DNA of 64,000 bases from an uncultured Candidatus Saccharibacteria bacterium (GTDB lineage Bacteria > Patescibacteriota > Doudnabacteria > UBA920): contig CAZHIA010000003.1 of assembly GCA_964532425.1 (NCBI GenBank), positions 5,594-69,593 of the forward strand, read 5' to 3'. Position 1 is the stretch's first letter. Every line of letters begins with the position of its first letter. Positions 329 to 34,030 of this stretch are shown here, in pieces. A model generated the notes under the pieces. It was given only the letters and a program-made list of their open reading frames with translations. It had not been told where the DNA came from and searched no databases. The position numbers were made by a program, and so were the translations under genes.

Positions 329-351
329 TGTTCTACTTAAGGAGGAATACT

Positions 352-537: not shown

Positions 538-540
538 CAC

Positions 541-3323: not shown

Positions 3324-3398
3324 AATAACGAAAAGTCCTTTCTGGTGGAATACCGTTTAACCAGATAATTGTACCAGAAAAGTCCCTTTTTGACCACC

Positions 3399-3432
3399 AT
3401 ATATAAAATAGGGAACGGGCCAGCCCGTTCCC
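3399..3432 (-). terminator. rho-independent terminator downstream of hpf
   Basis: Hairpin GGGAACGGGC..GCCCGTTCCC followed on the minus strand by TATTTTATATAT. Confidence 0.6.
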
Positions 3433-3445
3433 TGCGAGTGCGTAT

Positions 3446-3775
3446 TTATATCAATTCTTTCAATGGTTTTTTTCGGCGGCGCTGGGTAACTTTCTTTGCT
3501 TTCGTTTTAGTCAGCTGCTCCTTGATTTTAGGCAGCACCAGGTCAAAGGCCGCATAAATATCCAAGCCCCGCGCTTCGGCATAATGTCCCCTGGGTTGAA
3601 TGTCGATCTCCGCGCGGAACGGCGGCTCCTTGGTCCGCTTTTTATCAACTTCAATCTCTACGCGGATCTTGTCTTCGGGCTTGATAAACTTGGACAAAGC
3701 ATCTAGCTTATCTTCTATAAATGACTGGATCGCCGGGGTCAGGGTGGTATTGGTGGCCTTGATGTTTAGGTTCAT
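3446..3775 (-). CDS. hpf: ribosome hibernation promoting factor / ribosome-associated inhibitor (HPF/RaiA family)
   Basis: [30 protein letters not shown]...[20 protein letters not shown] matches the sigma-54 modulation / YfiA family. Start placed at the internal Met (complement 3773-3775). Confidence 0.8.
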
Positions 3776-9832: not shown

Positions 9833-10956
9833 GTGTGGAGTGTATTTAGTCCTTGCAAAATAACGTTGGCAGTCCTGTCCCAATCGAATCGTTCAACCCG
9901 TCGCAAACCGCGGTCTATAAATACGTCCCGTACACGGCCATCGGAAACGAGCTGGCGCAAGGCATACGCAATTTCGGCAGGTTGATAGGGACTAACGAGC
10001 AGTCCAGCCTCTCCTACAACTTCAGGGACGGAAGTCACGTTACTAGCCACGACCGGAGTGCCAACAGCCATCGCTTCGATCGGCTGGAACCCAAACCCTT
10101 CATAAAAACTTGGGTACGCTACGGCTCGGGCTAATTTCAAAATAGCCGCTTTGTCTTCTTCGCTGTCTATATAACCAATGTAGTGAATGAGGCGCCGCTT
10201 ACTGCTGCGCTGCAACGCCTTGAACAGCTCTCCATACTTCCAGCCTTTGCGTCCGGCTACGACGAGATGCATATCGCCGGGCAGCTGCTCAAAAGCTGCC
10301 AGTAATCCGGTCAGATTTTTTCTCGGCTCGATGGTATTTAAAAAAAGGATAAACTCGCCCGGCAGTCCATACCGGTTGCGAACATCGCGCAACACCTCCA
10401 CGCTGATGCTGGGGTGAAATATGGTCCGGTCAATACCCGGGTACGCGACCGTAATGCGGCTCGGCTCTAAATGAAATAATCTGACGAGATCGTCTTTCGT
10501 ATGATGAGAAACTGCAAAAATTGCATCTGCTCGCACAAACGATGACCGGTAACCCAAAAAACGATGCCAGAGCCGGCGACGCAAATCATAAAATTCCGGA
10601 GCGACGACCGGAGACAAATCGTGGACAGTAATAGCCAGCTTTGTCCGTGCTGAGACAGAAAATGGGCTTAAGTTCGGCAAAAACAGGCAATCTATTCGCC
10701 CGACGAGGCTTTCAATATTGATCGCGCGGGTCTTGAAAGCCGCATTCAGGAGCTTGTTAGGAATATGTGATGTTTTGACCTTGGAATTTATAAAATGAAA
10801 ATCAACCGGGTTTCCACCGGTCCAGGAATTATAGAACAATGTGTATTCGTTTTTACGGTCTAGAGCCAGCAGATGGTCTATCAGGTTGACGATATAATTC
10901 TCAACCCCGCTCAATTTTCCGCTGGAGAGACTCCTGAGATCTACTGCGATATGCAC
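9829..10956 (-). CDS. glycosyltransferase family 1 (GT4)
   Basis: [20 protein letters not shown] motif. Translationally coupled to the next GT. Confidence 0.8.
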
Positions 10957-10993
10957 GGTAACAATATCAAAAATTAAATGTCAAAGATCAAAT

Positions 10994-12091
10994 TTACTGT
11001 ACAGCATTGATCTTCTGAAAAATAAAGTCACTCATCTTCCGATTAAATATTTCTTCTGTAAAGTTTGCCGCGTGGCTGACCAGTGCTGCCTGTGAATAGC
11101 GGTTTGCGTTCCATTGTATAATCATTTCTTTTATTGCTTCCTTGTCTGGTTCATAGAAAAATTCGCCGGTGACTCCCGGTCTGACTGTTTCCAACGCTCC
11201 GCCTTTTCCATATGCCAAGGTCGCCGTACCGCATGCCGCCGCCTCAAGCGGCATCAGCCCGAAATCTTCCAGTTGCGGATAAATAAATCCGAGGGCCCCG
11301 CTGTACTGATCGCGCAATTGTTCGTCAGTCACCCGCCCCAGGAACCGAATGGTCTTACCTGCCCGCTTTTTCAGATCGCGTTCATGGCGGCCCGTTCCGA
11401 TCACATGCAGGATCCAACCGATCTCATTGAACACATCTATAACGACATCGAGATTCTTATGCGCTTGGAGCCTGCCGCCAGCCAGAAAATATTTTTCCTT
11501 CGGTACGGTCGGCTTCCAGAAATCGGTCCGAATTCCGGGATGAATAACCACACTGTCCCTGCCATAATACATCTGAATGCGCTGCCTGACCTCTTCCGAG
11601 TTCGCAATGAAGAAATCGACCCGCTGCGCTCCGTCATAATCCCACACTTCCATTCTGTTCAGGAAAAACCTCAGGATATCTTCCACAAAGGGTCGAATAA
11701 CCCACGGAACTTCCTGCCTGACATACTCCTTGTTATGCCAGAGAAAACGGGTCGGCGTATGGCAATAACAAATATGCAGCGACCCTTTCGGTACGGTAAT
11801 ATTTTTGATAAAAGAAGAGCTGGAAGAGACTACTACCTGAAAGCCTTCAAATTTGAGAGAACCGACTGCTGCCGGTATGACGGGCAGCCAGTACTGCAAT
11901 TTAGGAAGCAAGCGATACCAACCGTTAAGCCAGCTGGTTCGAAAGTCATAAGACCCCAGCTGAGATGCAAGCTTTGAATCAACCACCAGAGTGAAAACCG
12001 GACTCTTCGGGAAGAGTTTCCGAATGCTACTGAACACCTTCTCAGCGCCGCCGAGCTGAGTAAAGCTATCGTGAGCTAAGGCAATTTTCAT
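10994..12091 (-). CDS. glycosyltransferase family 1 (GT4)
   Basis: GT4-like motif near the C-terminus (LEAAACGTATLAYGKGGALE). Start set at MKIALAHDS. The longer ORF N-terminus is just the translation of the intergenic TTGACAAAAT repeats. Confidence 0.7.
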   Translation of the reverse strand: MKIALAHDSFTQLGGAEKVFSSIRKLFPKSPVFTLVVDSKLASQLGSYDFRTSWLNGWYRLLPKLQYWLPVIPAAVGSLKFEGFQVVVSSSSSFIKNITVPKGSLHICYCHTPTRFLWHNKEYVRQEVPWVIRPFVEDILRFFLNRMEVWDYDGAQRVDFFIANSEEVRQRIQMYYGRDSVVIHPGIRTDFWKPTVPKEKYFLAGGRLQAHKNLDVVIDVFNEIGWILHVIGTGRHERDLKKRAGKTIRFLGRVTDEQLRDQYSGALGFIYPQLEDFGLMPLEAAACGTATLAYGKGGALETVRPGVTGEFFYEPDKEAIKEMIIQWNANRYSQAALVSHAANFTEEIFNRKMSDFIFQKINAVQ

Positions 12092-12290
12092 AGAATTGAC
12101 AAAATCGACGAAATTGACATAATTGACAAAATTCGGAAACAAAGAAATACAGTAGAAACACTATAGAAATATGGTAGAAATACAATTGTATTTCCATGTA
12201 TTTCTATTGTATTTCAATCGTATTTCTCTCTGATGTTTGTATAATTTTGTCAATTTTTTAAATTATGTTCAATTTTGTCAATTATTAATA
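12092..12290. repeat. composite intergenic palindrome (about 200 bp) built from AATTGACAAAAT and GAAATAC words
   Basis: Left arm AATTGACAAAATCGACGAAATTGACATAATTGACAAAATT and right arm AATTTTGTCAATTTTTTAAATTATGTTCAATTTTGTCAATT in inverted orientation. The core is GAAATACAATTGTATTTC (perfect 18-bp palindrome) flanked by GTATTTC repeats. Confidence 0.8.
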
Positions 12291-13877: not shown

Positions 13878-14280
13878 GGCTTCCAGCAAACTCATAAGCC
13901 GAATTCTGTTTGAAACAATCATCTATCTGGGACTGACATTGCTGCCAGCCTCGAGCGGCCTACCAAACTTGGCCTTGCGCTCTGGTAAGGATTTAGCCGT
14001 TTCACCCTCTATGTTGCCATGGAGGATCGCCCTGTACCAGTCGTCCCCCTAAGGAGGACTCCGGTTCAGGGCGCTTTCACCCTTTCGGGTTCAAGCGTTT
14101 CTGTTCGCACCTCTAAGGTTACCCTCGGCGGGCGTTACCCGCTACCATTGTTGATTTTTCTAAAGAGTTGCCCTCTTTAGAACCATCAACCGAGTGTTCG
14201 GACTTTCCTCCCCGCCCTTTGGATTGCATAGAAAGACTATTGTGAATTCTTAGCCTGAGATGTCCCCACGAACTTCCGTA
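13878..14280 (-). ncRNA. rnpB: RNase P RNA (bacterial type A); 5' boundary approximate
   Basis: Minus strand contains GGAGGAAAGUCCGAACAC (P4 5' strand with the conserved bulged U), ACAGAAUUCGGCUUAUGAG (P4 3' strand with covarying GG>AA / CC>UU), AGGGUGAAAGCG and GGGUGAAACGG motifs, and ends at a strong terminator. I could not resolve P1, so the 5' end is uncertain. Confidence 0.8.
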
Positions 14281-14487
14281 TTTCTTTAAGGCTCGTTCTC
14301 TTGCCAAAGCGTCTTTCTTTTCAGCATATGCTTCGTAATATACCAATCTAAAAGGTGTATATGCTTTTGTTGATATTTCCTGACCTGCATTATGTTCAGC
14401 GAACCTACGTTTAAGATCATTAGTTTGGCCAATATAAACAAATCCTTGTTTATTGGCCAGACTTTTGATTACGTAGACATAATGCAT
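14119..14487 (-). CDS. GIY-YIG nuclease family protein (small YhbQ-like); ORF tail reads into the rnpB 5' region
   Basis: MHYVYVIKSLANKQGFVYIGQTNDLKRRFAEHN is the canonical GIY-YIG motif. The domain ends around 14235. The open frame continues with low-complexity sequence through the RNase P RNA 5' part on the same strand. Confidence 0.7.
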   Translation of the reverse strand: MHYVYVIKSLANKQGFVYIGQTNDLKRRFAEHNAGQEISTKAYTPFRLVYYEAYAEKKDALARERALKKYGSSWGHLRLRIHNSLSMQSKGRGGKSEHSVDGSKEGNSLEKSTMVAGNARRG

Positions 14488-14621
14488 ATGCAATCCAAAG
14501 AGCGGGGCGATTGTTCGATTTGCTGAAAGCTTCACAAATCATAGCAAAAATTGGGCATTCTGTCAATATAAGAAAAGCCGCCCCAGAGCATCTGGGACGG
14601 CCACAATGGTGCGCAAACTGA

Positions 14622-14936
14622 CTATGCGCTGGCGGCATGTGCGAGATGATAGCGTCCTCGCCGAGTCGGCTGAGGCCGTTTCTGCTCACTGTGGATCTCG
14701 ATGGTCTTCAGGTATTGGAAACCCGCCTTTTTCAGATTTTCCTTGACGGGATGTTCCAACACCCTGTCATCCATCTGGATCCGGTACGTACCGTCGATGA
14801 GTGCAAAATCGTTGCCGTGGCGTGCCACTTCGAGGTCAGGAACAATGATTCGCAACCGCGAATTTAGGTATCTGAGCTGTTCTCTGGTATTGCCGTTTCG
14901 CAAATCATTTCCTGGCACAAAGCAAATATGCACCAT
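14622..14936 (-). CDS. hypothetical protein (104 aa)
   Basis: Clean ORF co-directional with neighbours (MVHICFVPGNDLRNG...). No family recognised by eye. Confidence 0.4.
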   Translation of the reverse strand: MVHICFVPGNDLRNGNTREQLRYLNSRLRIIVPDLEVARHGNDFALIDGTYRIQMDDRVLEHPVKENLKKAGFQYLKTIEIHSEQKRPQPTRRGRYHLAHAASA

Positions 14937-15072: not shown

Positions 15073-15852
15073 TTATTTCACTTCAAATATCACACTCATG
15101 GTTTCGGTAATATCCTGGCTGCCAGGCTGAATATCAGGAGCGATCGATTTGGCTTCATTCATCGCCGCTCCGCCCCTACCGGCCGCGTAATCCATGGCGT
15201 ATGGGACCGGCCCTGGAAAACTCGTATTAGATTCGGAAACGCTCACGATCTTCCCGAGGGTTAAACCTGCTTCGGAAGCGAGTTCCTGCGCTTTGGTTTT
15301 GGCATTGGCAATAGCCTGTTTGCGGGCTTGCTGCTTGAGATTGTCAGGATCGTTGAAGCTAAAGCTGACATTCTGGATCTCATTCGCTCCGTTATTAACG
15401 GAACCATCCAAAATGGCTTCCAATTTTGTCTGACCCTTGTCAATATCGTGAACTTTAACCGTTACGGTCTGATTGCCCTGGTAGCCGATAATGCGTGCCG
15501 TGCCATTGCTCCAGTCTTGCTGCGGATAGAAGTTGTATTGGGACGTCTTAATATCTTTGGCATCGATCCCTTGCTGTTTGATGAACTCAATAACTTTGTT
15601 AACCTTGGTATTGTTCTGGTCTTTAACATCCTTGGCCGTGGTCCCCTGGGACATGACCCCGATGGTTACAGTAGCCAGATCCGGCGTAGCCTGCACCTTT
15701 CCATCAGCTGAAACAGCCATGGTCTGGGCCGGTTTCCTATTCTTGATCTTGTCATTCAAATCCGTCCCTTTTTGGACAATCAAAATGGCCACAAAAATAA
15801 CGAGTAGTGCGCCCAGGGTGACAACAAGCCACTTTGGCAAGGTTTGATTCAT
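15073..15852 (-). CDS. SIMPL domain (DUF541, BP26/YggE-like) periplasmic protein
   Basis: N-terminal TM/signal (WLVVTLGALLVIFVAILIV), then a beta-rich domain whose pattern resembles SIMPL/DUF541 proteins. Confidence 0.5.
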   Translation of the reverse strand: MNQTLPKWLVVTLGALLVIFVAILIVQKGTDLNDKIKNRKPAQTMAVSADGKVQATPDLATVTIGVMSQGTTAKDVKDQNNTKVNKVIEFIKQQGIDAKDIKTSQYNFYPQQDWSNGTARIIGYQGNQTVTVKVHDIDKGQTKLEAILDGSVNNGANEIQNVSFSFNDPDNLKQQARKQAIANAKTKAQELASEAGLTLGKIVSVSESNTSFPGPVPYAMDYAAGRGGAAMNEAKSIAPDIQPGSQDITETMSVIFEVK

Positions 15853-15972: not shown

Positions 15973-18900
15973 TTATGAGATTGCAATAGTTTTATTGAGC
16001 ACACCTTGCTTGCCGATCGTAACTTGCCCTTCATACACCAATACTGCACGATCTTCGGAAATCTCCTTTACTTTAAGCAGATATGTTCCCGGTTGGCTCT
16101 TGAGGAAGAAAACCCCGTTCGGTTTTGTAACAGCTTTACCCATGACAATAGTGGGGAGAGCCACCGGAGAGAGCTCTAAATACAATCCGCCGACATCTCT
16201 GCTGCCGGCCAGACGACCGAGCAATCTCGCATGGGGAACGACCTTCCTGAGCACAGCAAGCACGACATACACTGCCAGGAATAATCCATTGAGCCAATTT
16301 GGCCTCATTGCAAATACCAGCAATGTCCAAGCCAGCCCCGCCCAAAAAACAAGCTCCAAAGTTATATTCAATATGTGCTCGATGCGGGGATGGAATTTGA
16401 CGATCCTTTTTTTGTCTTCCTGGTTCCAATCAAAGGCCTGCTGATCCATCGGAATATTCGGCGTCAGTGGCGCAGAACCATTGCGAACACTCAATTCTTC
16501 CCCATGGTAGACATTTTCATAGATGCCGTCACTTGATCCTGCCACGTGCACGGAAGGGAAAGTGTAGTTAGTTTTTCTTGCCCGGATTCGGTACAGTCCC
16601 GGCTTATCGAGGAAACCAAACTTCCCGTAGAGATCGGTAATGGCATGATCCACTTCTTTACCGGAACGAACGTCTATTAAATCAACCAATACCGGATCGA
16701 GCGGCTGCTTATTCTTACTGTCATAGACCGTTCCCCAATGCCGCCGGCGGGCACGTATTCCAAGCATGCCGAGCAGTCCATACACCAACCGAAGGAAATA
16801 CAGCCAGATGTCAGAAGCGCTGCCGGCATTCATGGACAAACCATACGTCGAAAGTGATGATTCAAGAGTTAACGTAGTCGGCGCAATAGCAATAGTGGCC
16901 ATTCTTGATGTCAATTCCATTGATCGCAGCTGCGGCATAGACACTATACCGGTTCGACCAGCGGAAATTTTTTCGCCCAGTTGCCGAACCACGTTTGAAG
17001 CAACACTGGTGATTCCTTCAAGAACCGGCGATATTGGAGTAACTGGCGATGCAGGAATACTGCCGGAACCACCAGAAGGCGGCTGCTCTCCAGGTATCTG
17101 CTGAATTGGCGTCGAGGATCCGGCCTGGCTTCCAGGCAAAAGGTTGCCAGTTTGATGAGGAGGATTTTCTGCAGGTGCCACCGGCGGCTGTACCGAGTCC
17201 GGGTCACGGTGAGAAGCGGGTTGATTGCTGACCGGAGCCGGCTCAGGCGGCAGCGGTACTAAGACAGGCTCCCGACCGGTATCTGTCGGCGGCACTGACG
17301 GGGTTTGAGGAGGAGCTTGTGAAACCGGCGGCGTCGCGGGTCCACCACCTCCCCCGCTCGGTGGATTCTGAACAGGTAAATCGCAAGCCGACGTAGTAAT
17401 GTCTAGAGCAGGAGAAAAACCGGTCTCCTGGGCATTAGCATTCCTCGCTTTAACATGGAATTGGTAATGACTGTTGCATGCCAGCCCGGATACTGTTGTG
17501 GTGGTCGCAGATATCCAAGAGGTCGTGGTGCTTGCCGTCATATTTTCGACCTGATATTCCGTCCCAATCGGATTTCCATTAGCATCCCATGTTAGCCCTA
17601 CCGCAGTAGCGGTAACCGTTGTCGTCGAAACATTTCCCGGGACATTCGCGAGCGTGTACGCAAACACGTCCGGCGCATAACCGCTCGTATTGTTTGCGTT
17701 CGTGACGATAGCGTAAAAATCGTACTGGGTATTTGGCACCAGGCTGGTACTGAGCCAGCTTGCGTTTGATGTCGTAGCGCTGCTGCCGGCTGTGGTTCGG
17801 TTAAAGTAGCGGTATGGTTGAGCAGCCAGTCCATACGCTGCATCAGCTGAGCCGGTTAGAGAAACACTAACCGAACTTGCAGTTACCGCAGAAACAGACA
17901 GCGTGCCTGGAACAAGTGAGGTGAGGTTTTGAAATAGAATCGAGTCAGTTACCCTGCCCGAGCTCTGGCCTGAGCCATTCAGGAATTTTGCATAAACCGA
18001 ATACGTACCATTTCCGCAGCTCCCCAAATTTTGGCAAATATCCCATGACTTTGTCGTTACATACGACTCAGGAGTCGCATCGGATAAGTCAGGTAAATTG
18101 GAAACCAGCATCAGCGTGGTTCCCGGCTGACCGGTAAGCTGGAGCGTAACATTCCGAGTCGACGTGATCGGGTCGTTTTGGTTTACATAAACACTGAAGC
18201 CCAGCGTTTCACTGCCTGAAGCCCACGGATCGAATGTGCCTCCCCCGCCAGAAGCAGCAGCTCCTTGAACTGAAACCTGACTGCTCAGCAGTGCTTCGCC
18301 GACATTTCCCGCATTGTCGAACACTCTAACTTTATAGTGGTACGTACCCGCTGGAAGGTTAGTGTCCGTCCAAGTTGTTGCCGCAGTAGATCCGGAGTTG
18401 TCCCAATTATCCGTATTGGAAAATACATACGGGGCAACACTCAATCCGGATTCAGCATCCTGGGAACCCGAAACAGCAATCGTAACAGAACCAGTACTCG
18501 TGCTGACTAAGGACAACGTTCCCGAATTCGGTAAAATAGTATCTATCCTGAAGGCAACCAGCCCATTATTTGCCACAGACCAAGGAGATTCCGCCCCTGC
18601 CTGATCCAAAGTTTTGACTCTCCAATAATAACCACTAGCCGAATCCGGCAGGACTTGCGCGCTTGAGCCGACGGAATAGAAACCGGATCCGGCATTTTGA
18701 CCGACGACAAAAGTTTTATCCCCTTGCGCGGCAAGAGCAGACGTATAGTCCACGGACAGTCCGCTAAAATCACTCGTCGTGGAAATTTGCATGCGGTAAC
18801 CGACTAAATCGGACGCGTCCGGATCAGTCAGGTTAAAATGCAAATCCGGTTGAGCAAGATTTATCCAGCTCCCATTGACCAACGGGCCGTTACCGAGGTA

Positions 18901-21900
18901 TGCGGGACTGTTTGGATTTTGATTACAGGGGGAAGCCGGCGGACTGACCATTGCGCTGTACGCGGTTTCGACTCCGTCATGGTTGCGGGCTTTGACGTGA
19001 AAAGAATATGAGTTTCCACATGACAAGCCGGCAAAAACAGTGCTCGTTGCCGTAACCCAACCTGAATTGGACGTAGCACTTGAGTTCTCGGCATAATATT
19101 CGGTTCCAGGAGGGTTTCCGTTCGTGTCCCAGGTTAAACGGACCGATGTGGCAGAAAGTACGGTCGTAGTGGCATTGGTTGGAATCTGTGCAGCTGTATA
19201 AATACTGCTCGTTGCGGTACTTGCCGAATTACCGGCGATATCAACCACCTGGGATTGAAACACGTATTTGGTGTTCGGCGTGAGGCCGCCACTGGTCCAC
19301 GTCGCGCCTCCCGGCGTACTCGTCGCCGAATTCGTCAGGTTGATAAAGTTATACGAAGCTATCCCGGAAAGATTATCCGAAGCTCCGGACACCACAACAT
19401 CCACATGGTCCGGATTCAGCCAATTAAACGTAATGGAACCGGGGTTCGGAGGAGTCGAGTCGAGTTTGAATGCTATACTTCCCGAATTAGCAAGGCTAAA
19501 CGGTGACGTTCCGCCGTTGCCATCAATCGCCTGCACCTCCCAATAGTACGAGCTATTATCGGACAAAACCTGCCCAGGCCCACCAATAGCATACGTTCCT
19601 GTACCAGCCAGCTGCCCCACGGTGAAACCATAGGAACCCTGCGGATTAAGCGCTGACGTGTAATCGAGCTGCGAAGAAGAAAAATTACTATTGGTATCTA
19701 TCCGAATGCGATACTTCACTGAATCCGCCCCATCAGGATCAGAAAGGTTGAATGTAAAATATGGGGACGTACTTGCAGTCCAGGTATTGGTCACGAACAG
19801 GTTCGGACCAAGCGAGCTCGGCGAATTCGGCGCATTGTTGGGAATGCCGGTGGTAATGGTTTTGTCTGTTCCATAGACCGACCCCTTTAAGTTCATGGCA
19901 AACATACGGACATGGTAGGTTGTTGACGGAGCCAGTCCGGTTAATGACGAAATGAAAGTCCCGCTCGCATTCGTTATCCCATTGCTCGCCACAGAACCGG
20001 CAGTGTCATACAACTTAAACTCCGCAACAGCGGTATTTCCGCCCCCGTTATTCGCGGAAATATTTAAACGATATTTTGCGTAAGGCGTTGTGTTGACGAA
20101 ATTAAAAGAACGCGATTCTCCATTTGCCCAGCTGACTTGGTTGGAAATTGATTGCAAGCTCACCCAAGCGCTTCCGTCCCATGCTTCAAAAGTCCAGTTG
20201 CGAGGAGAGTCGCCGCCGCCGGAATAATTATTTCCGGTTATCGTATACTTGTTGACGACAGTCGAAACAGGAAAATCGTATTCTAAATCATAACTCATCC
20301 CTTGGTTGGATGACCAGTATGTGTTCGGATTACCATCAAAAGCATTTGAGGCAGAACCGATGTTTGCTTTTGACGCGGCAGCGGTACCAGTCTCAAGAAT
20401 AGCCAGATTTACATTCGGCACGGACGGGTTTGGATAGGTTGCCCACACGCTCCCGTAACCAGTGATCTGATAAAATGGTAAATCTAAAATTGTGCCGTGG
20501 CCAGTGGCGGTTGTAGACAGAATGTCGGTAACGTCATCGGAGGTGACACTCGGTACTGACGCCGGATAGAGCGAGCCAGCCGCTCCAGCGCCGTAACCAA
20601 CCCCTCCGGAAACACTGCGTGAGACGCTGTTATTATAGACGGAGCTTAACACTGAAATCCTACCGCCGCTTCCACCACCGCCGTTATTGCAACCGTTCCC
20701 CCCGTTTGAAGTTAAACTACCGGAGCCGGCAAAGTTTGTGGTGGTGATGAAAATACTCCCGCCGCTTCCACCACCCGGACTCCAACAATTGAATGCGTTA
20801 GAACCGTTTGCAGAAATTACTCCATCAACGGTAGTTGTGCCGGTTACACTGAAAATCGCCGCACCGCCACCCGCACCACCTCCGTCATTCGAACTGCCGA
20901 ACTGACTTGAGTTCCCCCCACCACTCCCAAGATCGACTGGATTCACCAAGGACCCATAGGGGCTACCAGCATTCACCGCAGACCCGTTACCACCAGAACC
21001 ACCATATGACCCTCCGGCATTATTGTCACGAGGAGTTATTTGGGAGGTTCCCGGCCCCTGCCCGCCGACGTATCCGCGGCCGTTAACGTTTACCGAACCA
21101 CTGCCGCTTACGGTAAGGTTTCCGTTTACCTGCCAATTCAATTTATAGAGACTCGCCGAACCAGTTGTGGCGGTTGTGTTATACGCATGGGTCAACATAC
21201 CGTCAATTGTCACATTATTATACGTTCTACTCGCACCCAGTGCCGCCACCACAAGAGTTGTGCCCGAAGGGATTGTAATGTTCTGATTCTGCCTCAGCAC
21301 CGCAAGGTCACCACCACTGTCAACAACAGTGCCGGACCAAGTCAGGGACGAATAGGAGAACGATGTGCCCGATTGCGCGTAGTATGCCGAGTTGCTTAAG
21401 ATTGTCAGGACAGTTGATGTAGATGAGGATCCAACCAGGTAAACGGCTGCATTATTTTTTAGAGTCACACTATCCATCACAAAAACAGGCAACGGAGTCT
21501 TTCCATACCCACGCTCGTCTGTCGCACCAGATGAATTCAGGTTGTTGTTATCGAGAAGCAAGTCTCCATTTGCTTGGGCTGCGGCTTTCTTGTACAGCGT
21601 TCCACTGCCGCCATAGTTTGGCCATGTGGTTCCGCTGTAATAGGCATAGCTCACCGAAGACACATCTGTCGTGTACTTTATCGCAATACGACCCCCGCTC
21701 CCGTTACCAGAGGCGTTTCCGCACGCATTACCGCCACGCGCGGTGATTGCACCGTTACCCGCCAGAGTTCTCGTCACCACATTAACGCTTCCCCCGCTGC
21801 CGCCACCGGCATCCCAGCAGCTAAACGCATTCCCCCCATTAGCAGAGATAGCACCACTGACGGTCGTAGTAGCCGCTACGTTCAGAATGATTGAGCCTCC

Positions 21901-24354
21901 GCCGCTCCCGCCACCATCGTTCGAACCGCCGAACGCGGTAATATTACCACCGCCGCTCCCGAGATCGGTAGGGTTAGTTATCGAACCGTATGTACCGGTC
22001 GCATTCACCTGGCTGCCGTTTCCCCCACTGCCTCCATAGGAGGCCCCGGCATTAAAATTGTGCGGCGTTATTTGAGCTGTCCCCGGACCATATCCTCCGG
22101 TAAAACCTTTCGAGTCAGCCGAAATAGAGCCGCTGACAGTTAAGCTGCCGCCAATATTTGCATTAATCCTTCCTCCGATTGTGCCCGAGGTTGCAACACT
22201 GTGAGTAACTACTGCTCCGGAATATACAATAAAATCCCCGTTTGTACTTAATGGCGCAGACAGGGCGTCATAATTAAAATTGAGGACTGACGCAACCCCT
22301 CCACCCACGACTCCGAGCGTCAGTGAGTTTATTGCAGTCGGACCGTTTATATTGACAGTCGCAGCTGACGCTATCACCGCATCATCTGTTGGTCCAGGGA
22401 CGCTACCGCTGCTCCAGTTTCCACCGTCTTCCCAATTATTCGTACCTGCCCCGCCGGTCCATGAGACCGCTGAATTATAGGCATCGGCGCGAACTCCACC
22501 AAAATCAAAAACCATGTGATGATCTCCCGTACGGAGGTCAAGAAATTTTACGGTAGCCACACTATCACATTGCCACTGGGGAACGTACACGGAATGGTCA
22601 GGACGCTCCTGGACACTAACCGCCTGATCGCCGCAGGCCAAGCTCTCAAACTGCATATCGGCCACGGTATCCTGATCAGCCGGCGAGATCACTAAGTCGG
22701 AAACTCCCGTGGTCATGAATTCGATATCCCAATACTGACCAGTTATCGGATGGGAATATACGTTCAGTACCGAAATTTCTACTGTCGGGTCGACAATGAC
22801 CGGATACGAGGCATCCTTGAGCCACTCGGCGTCCGGGATAACAGTGAGCAAATTATTCTTAAGCTTTAGTTCCAGCTTCTGGCTGACACGGCCAGCACTA
22901 TCGCTCATTTGTGGAGCGGTGATTGAATACAGTTTGTAGAGCGATTGGCCGAGATATCCTTTTTTGTAGAGGTCAATTCTGTTTGGTGAAGCTTGAAGGA
23001 AGTCGTAAGTATCCATATTCAGCAAATACCGGAATTTACGGGGATGGTGAGAATTTTTCAATACAATAGATTCTTTCAAACTTCTTGCAGAGATGTCGTA
23101 CTTCACATCAGTATTCTCAAAAACATCCGAATACGTTACCGTATCACCGGACCTTGTTCCACCTGCTGCTGCCCGAGAACCAATCATAAGCATGGACAGC
23201 ACACTTGGCGCTGGCGACGACCCTTCCGCAATGGTAATCGGTTGTGACAAATCACTCGGTAAGGCAACGTCCGCGGTTTTGGTGGAACGGTGGATCAGCG
23301 AAAATTTCTGCTGGTCTCTGAGTCGATCCTGCAGTGTGTCCGAATTCTGCACTACCCCTTCCTCAGCGACCGGTTCAGAGTATTCGGCTTTAATTTTAAC
23401 TCCATCGATGGAAAGCAGTGCATCGCTCTCATCTCCCTCTCGTAAGGAACCGGGAATGAATCGCATACGAACAGTACTGCTTCCAATTTTCGTCAAAAAA
23501 GGACGAGGAAGCTCATATTCGATAAAGCCACCCATGGCGGCGTTGGAAAATCCGCCATCCAAATTGACCACTCCTGCTTTTTTCCAGGTCTGGTCCTGGT
23601 CAAAATATTCGACTTGCAACTTGGCACCAGGCAGCGGTACAGAAGCCATCGAAATATCAATCTTTAACGTTCGTAGGTAGTCAAGATTTGGAAGGGTTGT
23701 CGAGGAGTCCTCCTGGTGAAAACCAGAAAATTCAAGATCGTAGGCAGTGGCAGAATCCTCCTGGTTTTCATTCGGACTTTGTGTGACTGATGGCTCAGTT
23801 GTGGTTGCTAATACGGACGACTCCGAGCTGCTCGGAGCGGCCTTGTCATCAGAGACGACAGGGTCTGAAATTTGTGGCACAAGATCTGCGCCAACCTCTA
23901 CCGGACCAGAACTGGCAACAGTACTTGTCGCAGCGAGGTTTGCCAATTCTGATTCAATACCAAACGCCTGAACAGCCTGAGTAACATCATCCCCAGCAGA
24001 AGATTTTTCTTCCAGATTGCCAAGAAAACTCAGCTGAGCAGAATTCGACGAAGTAAACATTGATGAATCAGCGTCTGCACCAAGCTCAGTTACGAGAGCA
24101 TTATTTACATTCTTCCAAGCAAATTTTTGGCCACCAGCCCCTGCTACTGCGGTCACCACTTGCGGAACGAATCGCAAGCTGTACAGACTATTGTTTTGGT
24201 CACCTGGAGCGTCAGATTGGCTGGTCGTATCGGCTTTCACGAGGATAACACCAGACTGAAATAATTGCGCAACAAAAAAAACGGCCACCAGAATTCTGGT
24301 TGCTAAAACGGCTAACCTGGGGTAAGTTTTATTTCTGGTTTTTATCAGTTTCAA
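15973..24354 (-). CDS. giant secreted/surface protein (2793 aa) with signal peptide, Gly-rich beta-helix-like repeats, FN3/Ig-like repeats, F5/8 type C (discoidin) domain, Pro-rich stalk and C-terminal TM anchor region
   Basis: N-terminal MKLIKTRNKTYPRLAVLATRILVAVFFVAQLF. Repeated GGSGGNGS / NGGNAFSCW tracts. NAFDGNPNTYWSS discoidin-like motif. Duplicated ~110-aa modules (SSLGPNLFVTNTW... / AYLGNGPLVNGSW...). PPSGGGGGPATPPVSQAPPQTPSVPP linker. C-terminal hydrophobic helices and a carboxypeptidase-regulatory-like segment (VLVDLIDVRSGKEVDHAITDLYGKFGF). Confidence 0.85.
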   Translation of the reverse strand: MKLIKTRNKTYPRLAVLATRILVAVFFVAQLFQSGVILVKADTTSQSDAPGDQNNSLYSLRFVPQVVTAVAGAGGQKFAWKNVNNALVTELGADADSSMFTSSNSAQLSFLGNLEEKSSAGDDVTQAVQAFGIESELANLAATSTVASSGPVEVGADLVPQISDPVVSDDKAAPSSSESSVLATTTEPSVTQSPNENQEDSATAYDLEFSGFHQEDSSTTLPNLDYLRTLKIDISMASVPLPGAKLQVEYFDQDQTWKKAGVVNLDGGFSNAAMGGFIEYELPRPFLTKIGSSTVRMRFIPGSLREGDESDALLSIDGVKIKAEYSEPVAEEGVVQNSDTLQDRLRDQQKFSLIHRSTKTADVALPSDLSQPITIAEGSSPAPSVLSMLMIGSRAAAGGTRSGDTVTYSDVFENTDVKYDISARSLKESIVLKNSHHPRKFRYLLNMDTYDFLQASPNRIDLYKKGYLGQSLYKLYSITAPQMSDSAGRVSQKLELKLKNNLLTVIPDAEWLKDASYPVIVDPTVEISVLNVYSHPITGQYWDIEFMTTGVSDLVISPADQDTVADMQFESLACGDQAVSVQERPDHSVYVPQWQCDSVATVKFLDLRTGDHHMVFDFGGVRADAYNSAVSWTGGAGTNNWEDGGNWSSGSVPGPTDDAVIASAATVNINGPTAINSLTLGVVGGGVASVLNFNYDALSAPLSTNGDFIVYSGAVVTHSVATSGTIGGRINANIGGSLTVSGSISADSKGFTGGYGPGTAQITPHNFNAGASYGGSGGNGSQVNATGTYGSITNPTDLGSGGGNITAFGGSNDGGGSGGGSIILNVAATTTVSGAISANGGNAFSCWDAGGGSGGSVNVVTRTLAGNGAITARGGNACGNASGNGSGGRIAIKYTTDVSSVSYAYYSGTTWPNYGGSGTLYKKAAAQANGDLLLDNNNLNSSGATDERGYGKTPLPVFVMDSVTLKNNAAVYLVGSSSTSTVLTILSNSAYYAQSGTSFSYSSLTWSGTVVDSGGDLAVLRQNQNITIPSGTTLVVAALGASRTYNNVTIDGMLTHAYNTTATTGSASLYKLNWQVNGNLTVSGSGSVNVNGRGYVGGQGPGTSQITPRDNNAGGSYGGSGGNGSAVNAGSPYGSLVNPVDLGSGGGNSSQFGSSNDGGGAGGGAAIFSVTGTTTVDGVISANGSNAFNCWSPGGGSGGSIFITTTNFAGSGSLTSNGGNGCNNGGGGSGGRISVLSSVYNNSVSRSVSGGVGYGAGAAGSLYPASVPSVTSDDVTDILSTTATGHGTILDLPFYQITGYGSVWATYPNPSVPNVNLAILETGTAAASKANIGSASNAFDGNPNTYWSSNQGMSYDLEYDFPVSTVVNKYTITGNNYSGGGDSPRNWTFEAWDGSAWVSLQSISNQVSWANGESRSFNFVNTTPYAKYRLNISANNGGGNTAVAEFKLYDTAGSVASNGITNASGTFISSLTGLAPSTTYHVRMFAMNLKGSVYGTDKTITTGIPNNAPNSPSSLGPNLFVTNTWTASTSPYFTFNLSDPDGADSVKYRIRIDTNSNFSSSQLDYTSALNPQGSYGFTVGQLAGTGTYAIGGPGQVLSDNSSYYWEVQAIDGNGGTSPFSLANSGSIAFKLDSTPPNPGSITFNWLNPDHVDVVVSGASDNLSGIASYNFINLTNSATSTPGGATWTSGGLTPNTKYVFQSQVVDIAGNSASTATSSIYTAAQIPTNATTTVLSATSVRLTWDTNGNPPGTEYYAENSSATSNSGWVTATSTVFAGLSCGNSYSFHVKARNHDGVETAYSAMVSPPASPCNQNPNSPAYLGNGPLVNGSWINLAQPDLHFNLTDPDASDLVGYRMQISTTSDFSGLSVDYTSALAAQGDKTFVVGQNAGSGFYSVGSSAQVLPDSASGYYWRVKTLDQAGAESPWSVANNGLVAFRIDTILPNSGTLSLVSTSTGSVTIAVSGSQDAESGLSVAPYVFSNTDNWDNSGSTAATTWTDTNLPAGTYHYKVRVFDNAGNVGEALLSSQVSVQGAAASGGGGTFDPWASGSETLGFSVYVNQNDPITSTRNVTLQLTGQPGTTLMLVSNLPDLSDATPESYVTTKSWDICQNLGSCGNGTYSVYAKFLNGSGQSSGRVTDSILFQNLTSLVPGTLSVSAVTASSVSVSLTGSADAAYGLAAQPYRYFNRTTAGSSATTSNASWLSTSLVPNTQYDFYAIVTNANNTSGYAPDVFAYTLANVPGNVSTTTVTATAVGLTWDANGNPIGTEYQVENMTASTTTSWISATTTTVSGLACNSHYQFHVKARNANAQETGFSPALDITTSACDLPVQNPPSGGGGGPATPPVSQAPPQTPSVPPTDTGREPVLVPLPPEPAPVSNQPASHRDPDSVQPPVAPAENPPHQTGNLLPGSQAGSSTPIQQIPGEQPPSGGSGSIPASPVTPISPVLEGITSVASNVVRQLGEKISAGRTGIVSMPQLRSMELTSRMATIAIAPTTLTLESSLSTYGLSMNAGSASDIWLYFLRLVYGLLGMLGIRARRRHWGTVYDSKNKQPLDPVLVDLIDVRSGKEVDHAITDLYGKFGFLDKPGLYRIRARKTNYTFPSVHVAGSSDGIYENVYHGEELSVRNGSAPLTPNIPMDQQAFDWNQEDKKRIVKFHPRIEHILNITLELVFWAGLAWTLLVFAMRPNWLNGLFLAVYVVLAVLRKVVPHARLLGRLAGSRDVGGLYLELSPVALPTIVMGKAVTKPNGVFFLKSQPGTYLLKVKEISEDRAVLVYEGQVTIGKQGVLNKTIAIS

Positions 24355-24755
24355 AATAATATTCGCCTATTTCCTATATATTTATTATAACAATGTTACG
24401 TCAAATTTTCGAAAAAAATTCAATATTTTTTATAAAAAATATATCAAAAATTTCAAATCTAAAGACATTGGTAATATGAAAAAAGTTAATGTGATATTTG
24501 TGACGGATTTTCATTTTACAAAACTTTCTTATCATTTTGCTCGTACCGCATTTAAAGTATAGTACTTTTTTATTTCACCCTTCATTCATTAATCAAATCT
24601 GATCTGATTTAATTGCAGTAAATCTCATGATTTTAGCTATATGTTATCCACATAAATTTATAAAATAGTAATTCAGGGTAGGGGTACTTTTGCGGTACGG
24701 GATTGACGGTTGACCCATTCTAATTTTCATTGAACTCTTTTGAAATCAATCGATA

Positions 24756-24784
24756 TTGACTTTTAATGTTTGAAGCTCTATCAT
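24756..24784 (+). promoter_or_regulatory. sigma70-like promoter: TTGACT, 17 nt spacer, TATCAT
   Basis: TTGACT at 24756-24761 and TATCAT at 24779-24784 with a 17-nt spacer, in a 450-bp AT-rich divergent region. Followed by the AGGAGG RBS of the small gene at 24807. Confidence 0.5.
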
Positions 24785-24806
24785 ACCAGGATACTAAGGA
24801 GGCTCC

Positions 24807-25049
24807 ATGGATTATCAGGCTGAATATGACCGCCTGCAACAGGCATGGGACGAAGCCCTTGACCGGGTCTACGATACCAATGAACATACCAAAGTCGTGG
24901 CGTTCACCCAAGACCATCGCGCAGTAACGGACGTTGCGATATACCTGGAGGACAATCGGGCAAACCTAACCGTTGAAGAGACTTTCTTTCTTCAGGTAAC
25001 TGTTGAGCTTCGCAAGGTTGCGCAAAAGATCAGGGAACACAAATCGTAG
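24807..25049 (+). CDS. hypothetical small protein (80 aa), paralog of 25373..25603
   Basis: Strong SD AAGGAGG 7 nt upstream. Weak but consistent similarity to the convergent downstream ORF (DEAL, V.F.QD, YL.DN..L blocks). Confidence 0.6.
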   Translation: MDYQAEYDRLQQAWDEALDRVYDTNEHTKVVAFTQDHRAVTDVAIYLEDNRANLTVEETFFLQVTVELRKVAQKIREHKS

Positions 25050-25303
25050 GACTGGAGGATAATGTGGCAATATGCAATAGGAGCAATGACACGGAAGCAT
25101 AGAAACGGGCAACAACGATCTGCCGTGCGATAGTCCCGCAGGCGACCGTGCCTTGTTCAATCAGGCAGGTGTTGACGGCCCGGTAACAGGAGCCGAGATC
25201 AAACAGCATTTCCTCAACAGCTCTCCCGAGCCGATCCGAACCGGCAAAAAATCAATCCCCGCCTCCAGCCTGCCCGGCCGGCGCTCAGCCGATTAAAAAT
25301 CAA

Positions 25304-25340
25304 ACGACCCGAAATGCAATTTCGGGTCGTTCTTATTTTG
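25304..25340. terminator. bidirectional rho-independent terminator
   Basis: Hairpin ACGACCCGAAAT/ATTTCGGGTCGT with T-runs on both strands, between the two convergent small paralog genes. Confidence 0.65.
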
Positions 25341-25372
25341 TCATTCTCGAAAGAGGCTGGGGTTCATGAAAG

Positions 25373-25603
25373 TCATGGCGACTTGACTGCAATCTTATGA
25401 TACTCGTAGGCCGCACTGAGCATGTAGATTTCCCCATCCGACAACGCATTAACGTTGTCAGCCAGATAGTTGCCGATCGCTTGAGGATCAGTACGATCCT
25501 GTACAAACACAACGGCGGAAGAATCAGGTTTGGAACTCCTGGCACCTCTGAGCGCTTCATCGTACAGCGTTTTCAATAATTCAAGCTCCTCTTCTCGGGT
25601 CAT
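25373..25603 (-). CDS. hypothetical small protein (76 aa), paralog of 24807..25049
   Basis: SD AGGAGG upstream of the ATG. Shares conserved blocks with the 24807 protein. Confidence 0.6.
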   Translation of the reverse strand: MTREEELELLKTLYDEALRGARSSKPDSSAVVFVQDRTDPQAIGNYLADNVNALSDGEIYMLSAAYEYHKIAVKSP

Positions 25604-25770
25604 AAAATCCTCCTGTGGCTGTGCGCATTTTACTCGATTTTACGTACCTCGTCAAGAATATTTTACCAACCCTTGGGTATTGAAAAGTTATCGGACCACC
25701 TTGAAAGAAATAGATGTGCAGTGGATAGATGGATTGCCAGGTTTTAGACATGCCTTACTCGGAATTACCT

Positions 25771-27022: not shown

Positions 27023-27367
27023 TTATTCTACAAATTCCAATACTGCTTTGGACTTCCCCGCTTTGGGATCGTTCAATTTGGTAAGCCGGGTATAACCGCC
27101 CTTGCGCTCTTTGAACTTTGGCCCAAGTACTTCCAGGGCTTTCTTCGCAGCCATCGGAGTCAATTTAGACAGCAGTAACCTGCGGGAATGCAAGGAATTA
27201 ACCTTCGCTTGGGTTACCGCCTTTTCAACATAACTCTTTGCGGCGCGGGCATTGGCATAGCTCGTCTCGATGCGTTCGTACAAAATTGCCGAAGAGGCCA
27301 AGGTGCGGAGCAGTTTGCGCTTGTGGTCGGTTCCCTTACCGATTTTCTTCTTTTTTGCGTGGCGCAT
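27023..27367 (-). CDS. rplQ: 50S ribosomal protein L17
   Basis: MRHAKKKKIGKGTDHKRKLLRTLASSAILYERIETSYANARAAKSYVEKAVTQAK matches L17. Confidence 0.9.
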   Translation of the reverse strand: MRHAKKKKIGKGTDHKRKLLRTLASSAILYERIETSYANARAAKSYVEKAVTQAKVNSLHSRRLLLSKLTPMAAKKALEVLGPKFKERKGGYTRLTKLNDPKAGKSKAVLEFVE

Positions 27368-27463
27368 AATGTTAGTTCAAAATTTAAAGTTCAAAATGCA
27401 AAATTTAGGTGCCGCTTCGCGGCTTCTATAATTTTTCATTTTGCACTTTTCACTTTTAATTGA
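27368..27463. repeat. repeated r-protein leader element (copy 1): AGTTCAAAATTTAAAGTTCAAAATGCAAAATTTAGGTGCCGCTTCGCGGC...
   Basis: About 60 bp nearly identical to 29125-29185. Contains the GCCGC-TTC-GCGGC hairpin and AU-rich tracts. Lies immediately upstream of the rplQ start codon, which has no SD. Confidence 0.8.
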
Positions 27464-28513: not shown

Positions 28514-29122
28514 TTATGTGCGGCTATAATGTTCAACAATCAACTGGGTGTTGATGGTGTTGCTGATCATTTCCGGCGTGGGCTGTGTCAATACTTTACC
28601 GGAGAGCTTCTGTGAATTCAGCTCCACCCATTCCTGGGTCTTGGAGTTTTTAAGCTGCTCCTTCAACTTTTCCACGAAGGCCTTGCTCTGCTTGACTGCG
28701 CGGATCGCAACGGTATCGCCGACTTTCACGCTGTATGACGGGATATCGACTTTCTTGCCGTTAACTTCGAAGAATCCATGGCTGACAAGCTGGCGGGCTT
28801 GGGCGCGGGTCGCGGCAAAACCCAGACGGAACACCACATTGTCGAGGCGCAACTCGAGCATCTTCAATAAATTGTCGCCGGTTACTCCAGGTTGCTTCAA
28901 TGCCTTCTCGAAGTAAATGCGGAATTGGCGCTCGAGTACTCCGTAATTGATTTTGGCTTTCTGCTTCTCACGAAGCTGCAAGCCGTATTCAGACGGGCGG
29001 CTGCGGCCCTGGCCATGCTGGCCAGGGGCATAGGCTCGCTTTTGAAGGATCTTGGCATCCTTATCCGTAAAGGCCATGCCAAACCTTCTCGCCTTTTTTA
29101 CTTTAGGTCCTGTGTATCGCAT
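28514..29122 (-). CDS. rpsD: 30S ribosomal protein S4
   Basis: MRYTGPKVKKARRFG...LESRLDNVVFRLGFA is canonical S4. Confidence 0.92.
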   Translation of the reverse strand: MRYTGPKVKKARRFGMAFTDKDAKILQKRAYAPGQHGQGRSRPSEYGLQLREKQKAKINYGVLERQFRIYFEKALKQPGVTGDNLLKMLELRLDNVVFRLGFAATRAQARQLVSHGFFEVNGKKVDIPSYSVKVGDTVAIRAVKQSKAFVEKLKEQLKNSKTQEWVELNSQKLSGKVLTQPTPEMISNTINTQLIVEHYSRT

Positions 29123-29232
29123 AATAGTTCAAAATTTAAAGTTCAAAATGCAAAATTGAGGTGCCGCTTTGCGGCTACTATAGATGTCCGCCGAAGGCGG
29201 ACTCCATAACTTTTCATTTTGCACTTTGCATT
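29123..29232. repeat. repeated r-protein leader element (copy 2)
   Basis: AGTTCAAAATTTAAAGTTCAAAATGCAAAATTGAGGTGCCGCTTTGCGGC plus a second hairpin CCGCCGAAGGCGG. Immediately upstream of the SD-less rpsD start. Confidence 0.8.
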
Positions 29233-32749: not shown

Positions 32750-32863
32750 AAAGAAATGACAAAAATGACATAATTGAACAAAATTGACAAAATTATATAA
32801 CTGCATCTGCAGTTTAATTTTGTCAATTTTGTTCAATTTTTTTAAATTTTGCTCAATTCCCCC
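32750..32863. repeat. composite intergenic palindrome (TTGACAAAAT family), copy 2
   Basis: GAACAAAATTGACAAAATTA TATAACTGCATCTGCAGTT TAATTTTGTCAATTTTGTTC: perfect 20-bp inverted arms around a CTGCATCTGCAG core. Confidence 0.8.
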
Positions 32864-34030
32864 TTATACCAAGCCCTTATACCCTAATCGCTTCGTAAAG
32901 CTGATATTTTTGCTGTTCTCCACCTGCGGCTGGTTGAACGGGTCCACGCCGCGCAGCGCTGAAGCGTAGACTGCGTAGAGCTGCCAGAACGCGGTCAACT
33001 GACCGATCTCCTGGGCCGAAAAACCGGCTGCCGCCAAGTGGACCAGCGGAATGCCGTGAATGCGGGCGTCCTCCATGGTGCCCTGCAATTCGCATTCCAT
33101 AGATTGCTCCAGTGGAATTTTGTTCAGGTCAAAGAGCGCCCGACTCTTCAGTTGTACGCTGTGGATGGAAGCCGGCAAAATATTCACGGTCGGATGCAAA
33201 AAAGTCTCAGTTGAAACAAAGAACCCGCAGATATTTTTTTGCCCTCCGAAAAACCGCTGATTGGTATGATGCTGGGATTCCGGCGCCTCATGGGCAAAAT
33301 ATGTCTGGCCTTTACCGTCCTTGCCGAATGATTCGTGGCACAGCTGGACGATTAGACTGCTGAGTGGAAACAGATTGTGGCTATAGAACGGCATAAAGAC
33401 GTCCACATACCCATCCTGTTCCAGCTGCCAGAACACGCTCGCGGCCTTAAAAGCCAGATTGTCTTTCGGATACTGGGCGTAAACTGCCCGGGCGCCTTCA
33501 TAGAGGCTTTTCACATCCAGCCCACAAATCGCAGCCGGCAACAGCCCGACTTCGGTCAAGCCAGTGTACCTGCCGCCGATCGGCGGATGCATGACAATCT
33601 CCATTTTCAGCTTTTCCGCAATCGCCCGTACCGGACTGGACCTACCGGTTACCACCACCATGGGATACTCGGTAAACTGCATCATCGCCTCTATCTGCGT
33701 TGTGTTTTCGCCGGATTTAGTAATCGCCATGACCAGTGTATTCTCTGGTTTGAGGGCACTCTTGAGCTCGTAAATATAATCAGGGTCAGTAGTATTCAAA
33801 AAAAATGCACGTTTGGTTGCCTGGTACTTCAAGGCGTGGTAAAAGCCGTAAAAACTCGTAATACTGCCGCCATGACCGATGACCAAAATATTTTCGTACG
33901 CCGTGAACTCTCTGGCATATTTGTCCATCAGATCAAAATCCGGCTGATAGCCCAAAAACGCCGGCGCTTCGGGCAAAAGCTGGAGGTCAAGCGTTTCCGG
34001 CTCAGGGCAATTATAAAAATCGAGTTTCAT
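32864..34030 (-). CDS. pgi: glucose-6-phosphate isomerase (SIS-domain PGI)
   Basis: VIGHGGSITSFYGFYHAL and MAITKSGENTTQ (SKSG-T motif) of phosphoglucose isomerase. Confidence 0.65.
   Translation of the reverse strand: MKLDFYNCPEPETLDLQLLPEAPAFLGYQPDFDLMDKYAREFTAYENILVIGHGGSITSFYGFYHALKYQATKRAFFLNTTDPDYIYELKSALKPENTLVMAITKSGENTTQIEAMMQFTEYPMVVVTGRSSPVRAIAEKLKMEIVMHPPIGGRYTGLTEVGLLPAAICGLDVKSLYEGARAVYAQYPKDNLAFKAASVFWQLEQDGYVDVFMPFYSHNLFPLSSLIVQLCHESFGKDGKGQTYFAHEAPESQHHTNQRFFGGQKNICGFFVSTETFLHPTVNILPASIHSVQLKSRALFDLNKIPLEQSMECELQGTMEDARIHGIPLVHLAAAGFSAQEIGQLTAFWQLYAVYASALRGVDPFNQPQVENSKNISFTKRLGYKGLV

Follow-up and report, generated by a model that had tools for sequence, protein, structure and literature searches.

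The 64,000 nucleotides (nt) analysed here (the window), from contig CAZHIA010000003.1 of an uncultured Candidatus Saccharibacteria bacterium (assembly GCA_964532425.1), encode on the reverse strand a protein of 2793 residues, which we call the giant. It is probably a Sec-exported surface protein that is anchored in the membrane at its C-terminal end and composed of domains suited to binding; the bacterium belongs to the ultrasmall Patescibacteria (candidate phyla radiation, CPR) and probably resembles Doudnabacteria. From this architecture we infer its function: judging by its domain types, the giant is probably a sugar-binding adhesin. The preliminary description of this stretch had proposed a cell-surface adhesin; export, membrane anchoring, modular build and a lectin-type domain all agree with this, which makes the adhesive role a reasonable, though inferred, part of the proposal. 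A giant adhesin-like protein is expected in Patescibacteria; what stands out is its C-terminal module, which is widespread, interleaved with transmembrane (TM) helices and lacks a dedicated model in Pfam and NCBIfam. Little is known of the means by which Patescibacteria recognise other cells and attach to them, and the literature found concerns type IV pili. The locus offers a tangible candidate in the form of a giant, lectin-bearing surface protein whose orthologs are conserved.

The C-terminal module spans ~310 residues and is composed, in order, of TM1, a basic cluster, a beta-sandwich, the TM2-TM3 hairpin and a further beta-sandwich (Table 1). Its AlphaFold2 (AF2) model, built on a 29-sequence alignment, has a predicted local distance difference test (pLDDT) score of 86.7, with values above 90 for the sandwiches and the hairpin; the N-terminal end consists of two lower-confidence helices, the second of which is TM1 (pLDDT 54-73). 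Both sandwiches adopt a transthyretin-like fold according to AF2 and Foldseek, the latter giving a probability of 1.0 for the transthyretin-like domain of carboxypeptidase D, CnaB2, the SdrD B domain and a chain of the human BOS complex. The CarboxypepD_reg-like families (PF13715/PF13620) scored 15-19.1 bits in the giant, below the threshold of 32.2, and many members of the module family carry a precomputed PF13620/PF13715 annotation. The carboxypeptidase-regulatory-like beta-sandwich combined with TM helices, as first described from the letters alone, is therefore well supported by the model. The module has 19 invariant columns, including WGxVYD..K.PLDP and a D-W-N motif, and all 19 are present in the giant, which matches the alignment A1 profile with 396.8 bits (profile positions 5-319, residues 2480-2792).

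The preliminary description had regarded this as an uncommon anchoring mode, which does not hold in this lineage, because the module defines a large family of Patescibacteria. Searching 1.84 billion representatives with a profile yielded 6835 matches, 2305 of them at E<=1e-30, and at least 597 loci emerged from a pattern scan in which each species was represented by one genome, several genomes having several copies. A word-index search gave 76 matches, which came from Paceibacteria, Nomurabacteria and similar groups and bore the name "carboxypeptidase regulatory-like domain-containing protein". All comparisons of neighbours, orthologs and taxa between loci were made on the best 79 of the at least 597 module loci. 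Among these, the loci with a taxon name are all from Patescibacteria, except for one 1.6-kb contig labelled Gammaproteobacteria; likewise, the named relatives of the giant and of the module among the loci inspected are all Patescibacteria, with Doudnabacteria closest. The module ends at most 5 residues from the C-terminus in 181 of 191 proteins, and it is C-terminal in every one of the 82 locus ORFs (open reading frames) that contain it, one of which is a split gene (L056); these host proteins range from 268 to 3020 residues, and those of the family as a whole from 265 to 3490. No model in Pfam or NCBIfam dedicated to the module matches, no description of it turned up in the literature searched, and the 64-kb window holds no second copy. 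Since hundreds of surface proteins of Patescibacteria that are otherwise unrelated end in the same module, which also occurs as a stand-alone core gene next to a CheY-like receiver gene, it is likely a lineage-wide anchoring platform. It marks a whole class of surface proteins, and with the alignment A1 profile the proteins anchored in this way could be catalogued for any Patescibacteria genome. Some partial relatives of the module (P0100-P0103, 28-45% query coverage) have an N-terminal type IV pilin-like methylation motif (PF07963; GFTLIEL...).

Charge, cysteine content and a truncated member together suggest that both beta-sandwiches are most likely cytoplasmic and that the N-terminal part of the protein lies outside. 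In the nine residues that follow TM1, 251 distinct members have 3.98 K+R versus 0.07 D+E; the loop between TM2 and TM3 has 3 residues, and the hairpin carries a net positive charge on each of its outer flanks. By the positive-inside rule, this pattern would place the sandwiches in the cytoplasm. Family ectodomains contain 1.98 Cys per 100 residues, with even counts in 86%, versus 0.33 per 100 residues in the modules. In addition, one member (L079, 2962-3768) starts with MKFSLRKKKAAEWGTVYD, and a stop codon lies three codons before this start, so that TM1 and a signal peptide are both missing in front of its sandwich 1. With its ~310 residues, 19 invariant positions and sandwiches of probable cytoplasmic location, the module is probably more than an anchor.

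A stand-alone module gene of ~285-310 residues is present in many genomes, including ones with giant orthologs. It sits among a conserved set of core genes (e.g. loci L015-L042): its upstream neighbours are a class A penicillin-binding protein (PBP), MreC, MreD, DnaK and FolD, and its downstream neighbours are a single-domain CheY-like receiver, YdjM, NusG, L11 and L1. In ~24 loci, a PF00072 receiver gene lies on the same strand 4-116 nt downstream of a module gene or overlaps its end, as exemplified by L042 (stand-alone module 9956-10885, receiver 10893-11279); module proteins of 922, 1253 and 2075 residues (L003, L009 and L010) are among the receiver-linked ones. Because of this adjacency, the module may tie surface proteins to a cytoplasmic partner, possibly the receiver protein. 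A bolder version, which we regard as unlikely, is that the sandwiches dock the CheY-like receiver or another cytoplasmic partner and so wire hundreds of ectodomains, including that of the giant, to one intracellular output. If true, these ultrasmall, host-dependent bacteria would have a system of their own for sensing contact or organising surface proteins.

The hydrophobic segments of the giant are at residues 11-41, 2661-2683 and 2687-2709, with a weaker one near 2513-2531, in keeping with the signal peptide and C-terminal membrane segments anticipated earlier. A hydrophobic N-terminus also begins the giant orthologs, and its sequence features identify that of the giant as a Sec signal peptide, not a lipoprotein signal; a lipobox was sought across the whole protein without a match, and the first Cys is residue 574. 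The 12 Cys form six spaced pairs, all of which are in the ectodomain, with none beyond residue 2324.

The lectin-type part of the ectodomain is the discoidin domain. F5/8 type C (PF00754) scored 31.8 bits when residues 1270-1520 were scanned alone, above the gathering threshold of 28.2, and 25.9 bits in the whole-protein scan; the same family is in the precomputed Pfam annotation of an identical public protein. The domain matches residues 99-222 of 7nsn_A, a chain of a GH92 alpha-1,2-mannosidase, with E 3.6e-14. It is followed by a rod of about ten Ig/FN3 modules, in which fn3 (PF00041) reaches 71.3 bits against a gathering threshold of 25 in two stretches (best at residues 2239-2315; E 1e-5 to fn3 chains in the PDB) and Ig_Rha78A_N (PF25788) reaches 34 bits against 27.4 at residues 1527-1620, with a second copy under threshold at 22.7 bits. 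Super-repeats pair residues 1506-1695 with 1811-2004, 1638-1800 with 2149-2314, and 1719-1811 with 2233-2325. Relatives also have Pro-rich stretches ahead of the C-terminal module. The discoidin domain, the FN3-like folds and the Pro-rich stalk of the preliminary description were thus all recovered.

The conserved head has ~55 invariant positions across nine homologs, including Cys574 and Cys596, and is rich in invariant D/H/W/Y/C residues. Searches of Pfam, NCBIfam and PDB sequences gave no match for it, and a word-index search gave two matches only. The AF2 model of the head and the following solenoid is of moderate quality (pLDDT 66.7), and Foldseek searches with it against PDB and viral structures returned low-TM matches only; the best but weak ones for the head were the A-domains of Gram-positive adhesins (Sgo0707, SdrC/D) and the S-layer protein SbsC. 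The Gly-rich region contains two repeats (residues 714-871 and 1052-1215) that are 57% identical, and it starts with the motif W-x-GGAG-x3-W-x5-W, which we take to be a typical opening of G8/beta-helix domains. The model shows short beta-strands, three per turn, with pLDDT below 50 in the Gly-richest loops, and the sequence has a periodicity of ~34 residues (z 2.7-4.1). Neither G8 (PF10162) nor any Pfam beta-helix family was found in the giant at threshold, G8 was matched weakly (E 3e-4) in two of the nine homologs, and fold matches to the beta-helices of Hap, IgA1 protease and Hbp had probabilities of 0.08-0.21. The AgmC N-terminal domain (NF047640) scored 17.6-20 bits, far below its NCBIfam cut-off of 275. 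Taken together, the beta-helix-like nature initially ascribed to this region is plausible and moderately supported, though short of established: the strand triplets, the period and the weak G8 matches favour it, whereas the missing Pfam match, the modest model and the low-probability folds do not.

On this basis, the giant could operate as follows. The signal peptide would direct export of a ~2450-residue, cysteine-paired ectodomain, and the C-terminal module would hold the protein in the cytoplasmic membrane with both sandwiches in the cytoplasm. The Pro-rich linker and the Ig/FN3 rod would carry the head, solenoid and lectin domain off the membrane and through the wall, where these could bind glycans or other structures of a host cell or substrate. 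The start of transcription would be set by the conserved promoter with its extended -10, which lies ~30 nt before the TTG codon at the edge of the AT-rich spacer.

Some observations pull in the opposite direction and have to be weighed. The head and the Gly-rich region are without informative homologs and only moderately modelled, so that an enzymatic or structural role is conceivable for them. TM1 is weakly hydrophobic, contains an Arg and is modelled at a confidence of 54-73, and transthyretin/CnaB-like domains are usually extracellular. No receiver gene was found within the 64-kb window, nor is there one downstream of the giant orthologs at L014, L002 and L007; it is thus chiefly the stand-alone paralog that is linked to a receiver. 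The points on the membrane segments would suit a topology in which the sandwiches are extracellular and wall-proximal, TM1 is an interfacial helix and the TM2-TM3 hairpin dips in from outside; the closest solved folds are all extracellular domains, and some relatives have an extra hydrophobic stretch ahead of TM1. We consider this arrangement unlikely in view of the strong basic cluster after TM1, the basic flanks on both sides of the hairpin, the member that lacks both TM1 and a signal peptide before sandwich 1, and the contrast between Cys-poor modules and Cys-paired ectodomains. That the long ORF is a chimera or mis-assembly is effectively refuted: apart from the metagenome-type source contig, no point was found in its favour, and the stop-free reading frame, the collinear ortholog described below, the lack of near-identical DNA repeats and a coherent domain order from signal peptide through to anchor all contradict it.

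Rather than being an adhesin, the giant might serve the cell's own envelope, for example as a spacer or sheath in the wall or surface layer whose lectin domain binds the cell's own surface glycan. It adjoins a glycan-synthesis cluster (WbaP-like transferase, three GT4, MurG and MurB/C), the same gene order (giant, WbaP-like transferase, GT1) is found again at L004 and L007, the head has its weak likeness to SbsC, and stand-alone module genes lie beside mreC, mreD and the class A PBP. However, such synteny is missing in L014, the close relatives are few and diverged (40-48% identity) and the number of solenoid repeats differs between homologs; since the latter two features are more typical of an interaction protein than of a core envelope part, a scaffold is in our judgement not very likely. 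Improbable, in turn, is a surface enzyme that degrades polysaccharide or wall with its solenoid and/or head, uses the discoidin domain as a carbohydrate-binding module and attacks host envelopes. Its attractions are that the discoidin domain has its best solved relative in a GH92 mannosidase, as an accessory domain, that parallel beta-helices are common in lyases and glycosidases, and that the homologs show weak G8 matches and many invariant D/H/W/Y/C residues in the head, but no catalytic family appeared in Pfam, NCBIfam or PDB sequences and beta-helix enzyme folds were absent or of low probability. A membrane-anchored adhesin that binds targets beyond the cell is thus the reading we retain.

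Among known systems, the giant can be compared to the wall-anchored adhesins of Gram-positive bacteria (microbial surface components recognizing adhesive matrix molecules, MSCRAMMs, such as SdrD/SdrC; LPXTG proteins). With these it shares an N-terminal Sec signal, a distal ligand-binding region followed by an Ig/CnaB-like rod, a Pro- or Ser-rich wall-spanning segment and a C-terminal hydrophobic helix with a subsequent Arg/Lys cluster, and the CnaB/SdrD-B-like fold of the MSCRAMMs is found in its terminal sandwiches. Unlike LPXTG proteins, it has no LPXTG-like motif before TM1 (LP.[TSA][GAN] occurs only at residues 1902 and 1941, at a great distance from TM1), and its helix is followed not by the C-terminus but by ~260 conserved residues comprising two sandwiches and a TM hairpin. 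It was therefore rejected as a sortase substrate and is presumably anchored by membrane insertion. RTX adhesins of the LapA, SiiE and MpIBP type resemble the giant in their multi-thousand-residue length and in a tandem Ig-like rod with sugar-binding domains. These are retained in the outer membrane by their N-terminal end, whereas the giant would be fixed in the cytoplasmic membrane by its C-terminal end. A giant adhesin of the RTX/type I secretion system (T1SS) type was likewise dismissed, as the giant has no match to the GGxGxDxUx nonapeptide and no C-terminal T1SS signal, and has a classical N-terminal signal peptide instead. Autotransporter beta-helix passengers and G8/PbH1 proteins may be similar to the Gly-rich region, in view of the three short strands per turn of its model, its W-x-GG-...-W-...-W opening, the weak G8 matches in homologs and the low-probability fold matches; the giant has no beta-barrel translocator. 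Finally, both sandwiches share their fold with transthyretin-like/CarboxypepD_reg domains (the C-terminal domain of carboxypeptidase D; NOMO in the BOS complex), from which they differ in being interleaved with three TM helices and predicted to be cytoplasmic.

The gene itself is real and intact. Its 2793 codons are read without an internal stop, and a protein identical to the giant is already on public record in a 285,837-bp NCBI contig. The ortholog at L014 (JACRDK010000031.1, Candidatus Doudnabacteria), of 2993 residues, is collinear over residues 78-2792 of the giant, with 48% identity at residues 78-2324 and 40% at residues 2349-2792. Tandem DNA repeats were looked for in the gene and none were found, blastn of the gene against itself gave no matches, and no part of it is repeated in the rest of the 64-kb window; the internal repeats are visible at protein level only (36-62% identity). 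The absence of DNA repeats, the identical protein on record and the collinear ortholog thus leave assembly collapse or chimerism, about which the preliminary description had cautioned together with frameshifts, unsupported. A diversity-generating retroelement target was also rejected, as the gene has no repeat partner within the window, although no search aimed at a reverse transcriptase was made. A run of eight T at 24274-24281 (- strand), in the part of the gene that encodes the signal peptide, could permit slipped-strand on/off switching or could be due to chance in an AT-rich setting.

Table 1. Positions of the giant gene, the parts of its product and adjoining features in the window (aa, amino acids; CDS, coding sequence; w/o, without).
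Feature	Position	Strand	Remarks
Complete CDS of the giant, 2793 aa	15973..24354	-	TTG start; stop codon 15973-15975
Signal peptide, aa 1-41	24232..24354	-	K/R-rich n-region, hydrophobic core, ...LVKA|DT, w/o Cys
Low-complexity Ser/Ala/Val/Asp/Thr-rich segment, aa 42-200	23755..24231	-	No domain match
N-terminal all-beta head, conserved, aa ~201-628	22471..23754	-	Common only to giant homologs
Gly-rich region, aa 629-1290	20485..22470	-	Two diverged repeats; strand triplets in model
Discoidin / F5-8 type C (CBM32-like), aa 1327-1451	20002..20376	-	Pfam, PDB match
Rod of Ig-like/FN3 modules, aa ~1460-2325	17380..19977	-	Ig_Rha78A_N x2, fn3, Big_13-like
Pro-rich linker, aa 2326-2470	16945..17379	-	33 Pro in 145 residues
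Conserved C-terminal module, aa 2480-2793	15976..16917	-	Profile, AF2, Foldseek
TM1, aa 2513-2531, then basic cluster RARRRH	16762..16818	-	Family alignment, AF2
Beta-sandwich 1, aa 2540-2640	16435..16737	-	Invariant WGxVYD..K.PLDP signature; alignment, AF2, Foldseek
TM2-TM3 helical hairpin, aa 2661-2709	16228..16374	-	3-residue loop; hydrophobicity, AF2
Beta-sandwich 2, aa 2713-2793	15976..16218	-	Alignment, AF2, Foldseek
AT-rich divergent spacer	24355..24806	.	27.4% GC
Promoter-like site of the giant	24384..24412	-	TCGAAA, 17 nt, extended -10 TGtTATAAT
Second promoter-like site, for the 80-aa ORF	24756-24784	+	
80-aa ORF	24807..25049	+	Divergent from the giant, GGAGG ahead; paralog-pair member
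76-aa paralog	25373..25603	-	Convergent with the 80-aa ORF; paralog-pair member
Two-way terminator-like hairpin between the small paralogs	25302-25332		

The spacer upstream of the giant is, as first described, extremely AT-rich and free of genes, the ORFs inside it being short and evidently spurious. Its GC content compares to 49.6% for the window and is the lowest of any 452-nt stretch in it; it is also the longest AT-rich spacer of the window, with 420 nt below 32%. An AT-rich spacer recurs in the giant orthologs, the upstream GC fraction being 0.115-0.197 below the locus mean in the five largest homologs and differing by ~0 for small family members, and the gene beyond the spacer varies between giant homolog loci. 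The -10 element plus the following AATATATAGGAAA is common to the giant, L014 and L005, and this conserved promoter is within the last ~60 nt of the spacer, next to the start codon. When 24200-25700 was compared with Rfam at a permissive threshold, no RNA element was found. This genome has AT-rich spacers as a general feature, of which the present one is the longest and most extreme; because of this, and because the promoter elements are confined to ~60 nt, the ~450-bp regulatory region once envisaged is not borne out. Arrays of ~10-nt units, TTGACAAAAT / TTGAACAAAA, are present in AT-rich spacers at 12090-12145, 12226-12288, 32751-32872, 45573-45691 and 53117-53160, with a weak match at 24396-24439. 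The units are -35-like hexamers spaced about one helical turn apart in either orientation, and the arrays could be a shared regulator-binding or promoter architecture.

Beyond the spacer, the two small ORFs described from the outset as a paralog pair are indeed paralogs (31% identity, E 2e-8), with no family match. Their suggested co-regulation with the giant fared less well: the two genes are convergent, only one is divergent from the giant, and comparative support is lacking because the 79 related loci contain no homolog of either. On the other side, a SIMPL/DUF541 gene (15073-15852, - strand) follows the giant on the same strand after 120 nt, and no terminator-like site was reported between the two; its homolog occurs in one of the 79 loci only (L044), which is not a giant ortholog. 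A 104-aa ORF at 14622-14936 has no homolog in these loci. The small paralogs, the 104-aa ORF and the SIMPL gene were rejected as functional partners of the giant, since they are not conserved at related loci.

The window further encodes SecA, MurB, MurC, MurG, several GT4 glycosyltransferases, the WbaP-like sugar transferase, RNase P RNA, ribosomal proteins, RpoA, AlaRS, Wzy and a flippase, with a second large surface protein at the far end. The latter (59427-63980, - strand) has at least 1517 residues with PKD, DUF11, BiPBP_C and DUF7507 domains, and its gene contains internal DNA repeats of 230-300 nt with 60-84% identity; since the repeat array reaches the window end, the gene may extend further. 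Elsewhere, the GIY-YIG ORF (14119-14535, - strand) runs ~75 nt into the 5' end of the gene for RNase P RNA (13879-14193, - strand), so that either the tail of the ORF is untranslated or the gene overlap is genuine. Moreover, a 58-nt repeat, 95% identical at 27373-27430 and 29125-29182 and containing a GCCGC-TTCG-GCGGC hairpin, adjoins the 5' ends of rplQ (27023-27367) and rpsD (28514-29122), where it directly follows rpoA in the one case and the gene ahead of rpsD in the other, and resembles a shared terminator or attenuator element.

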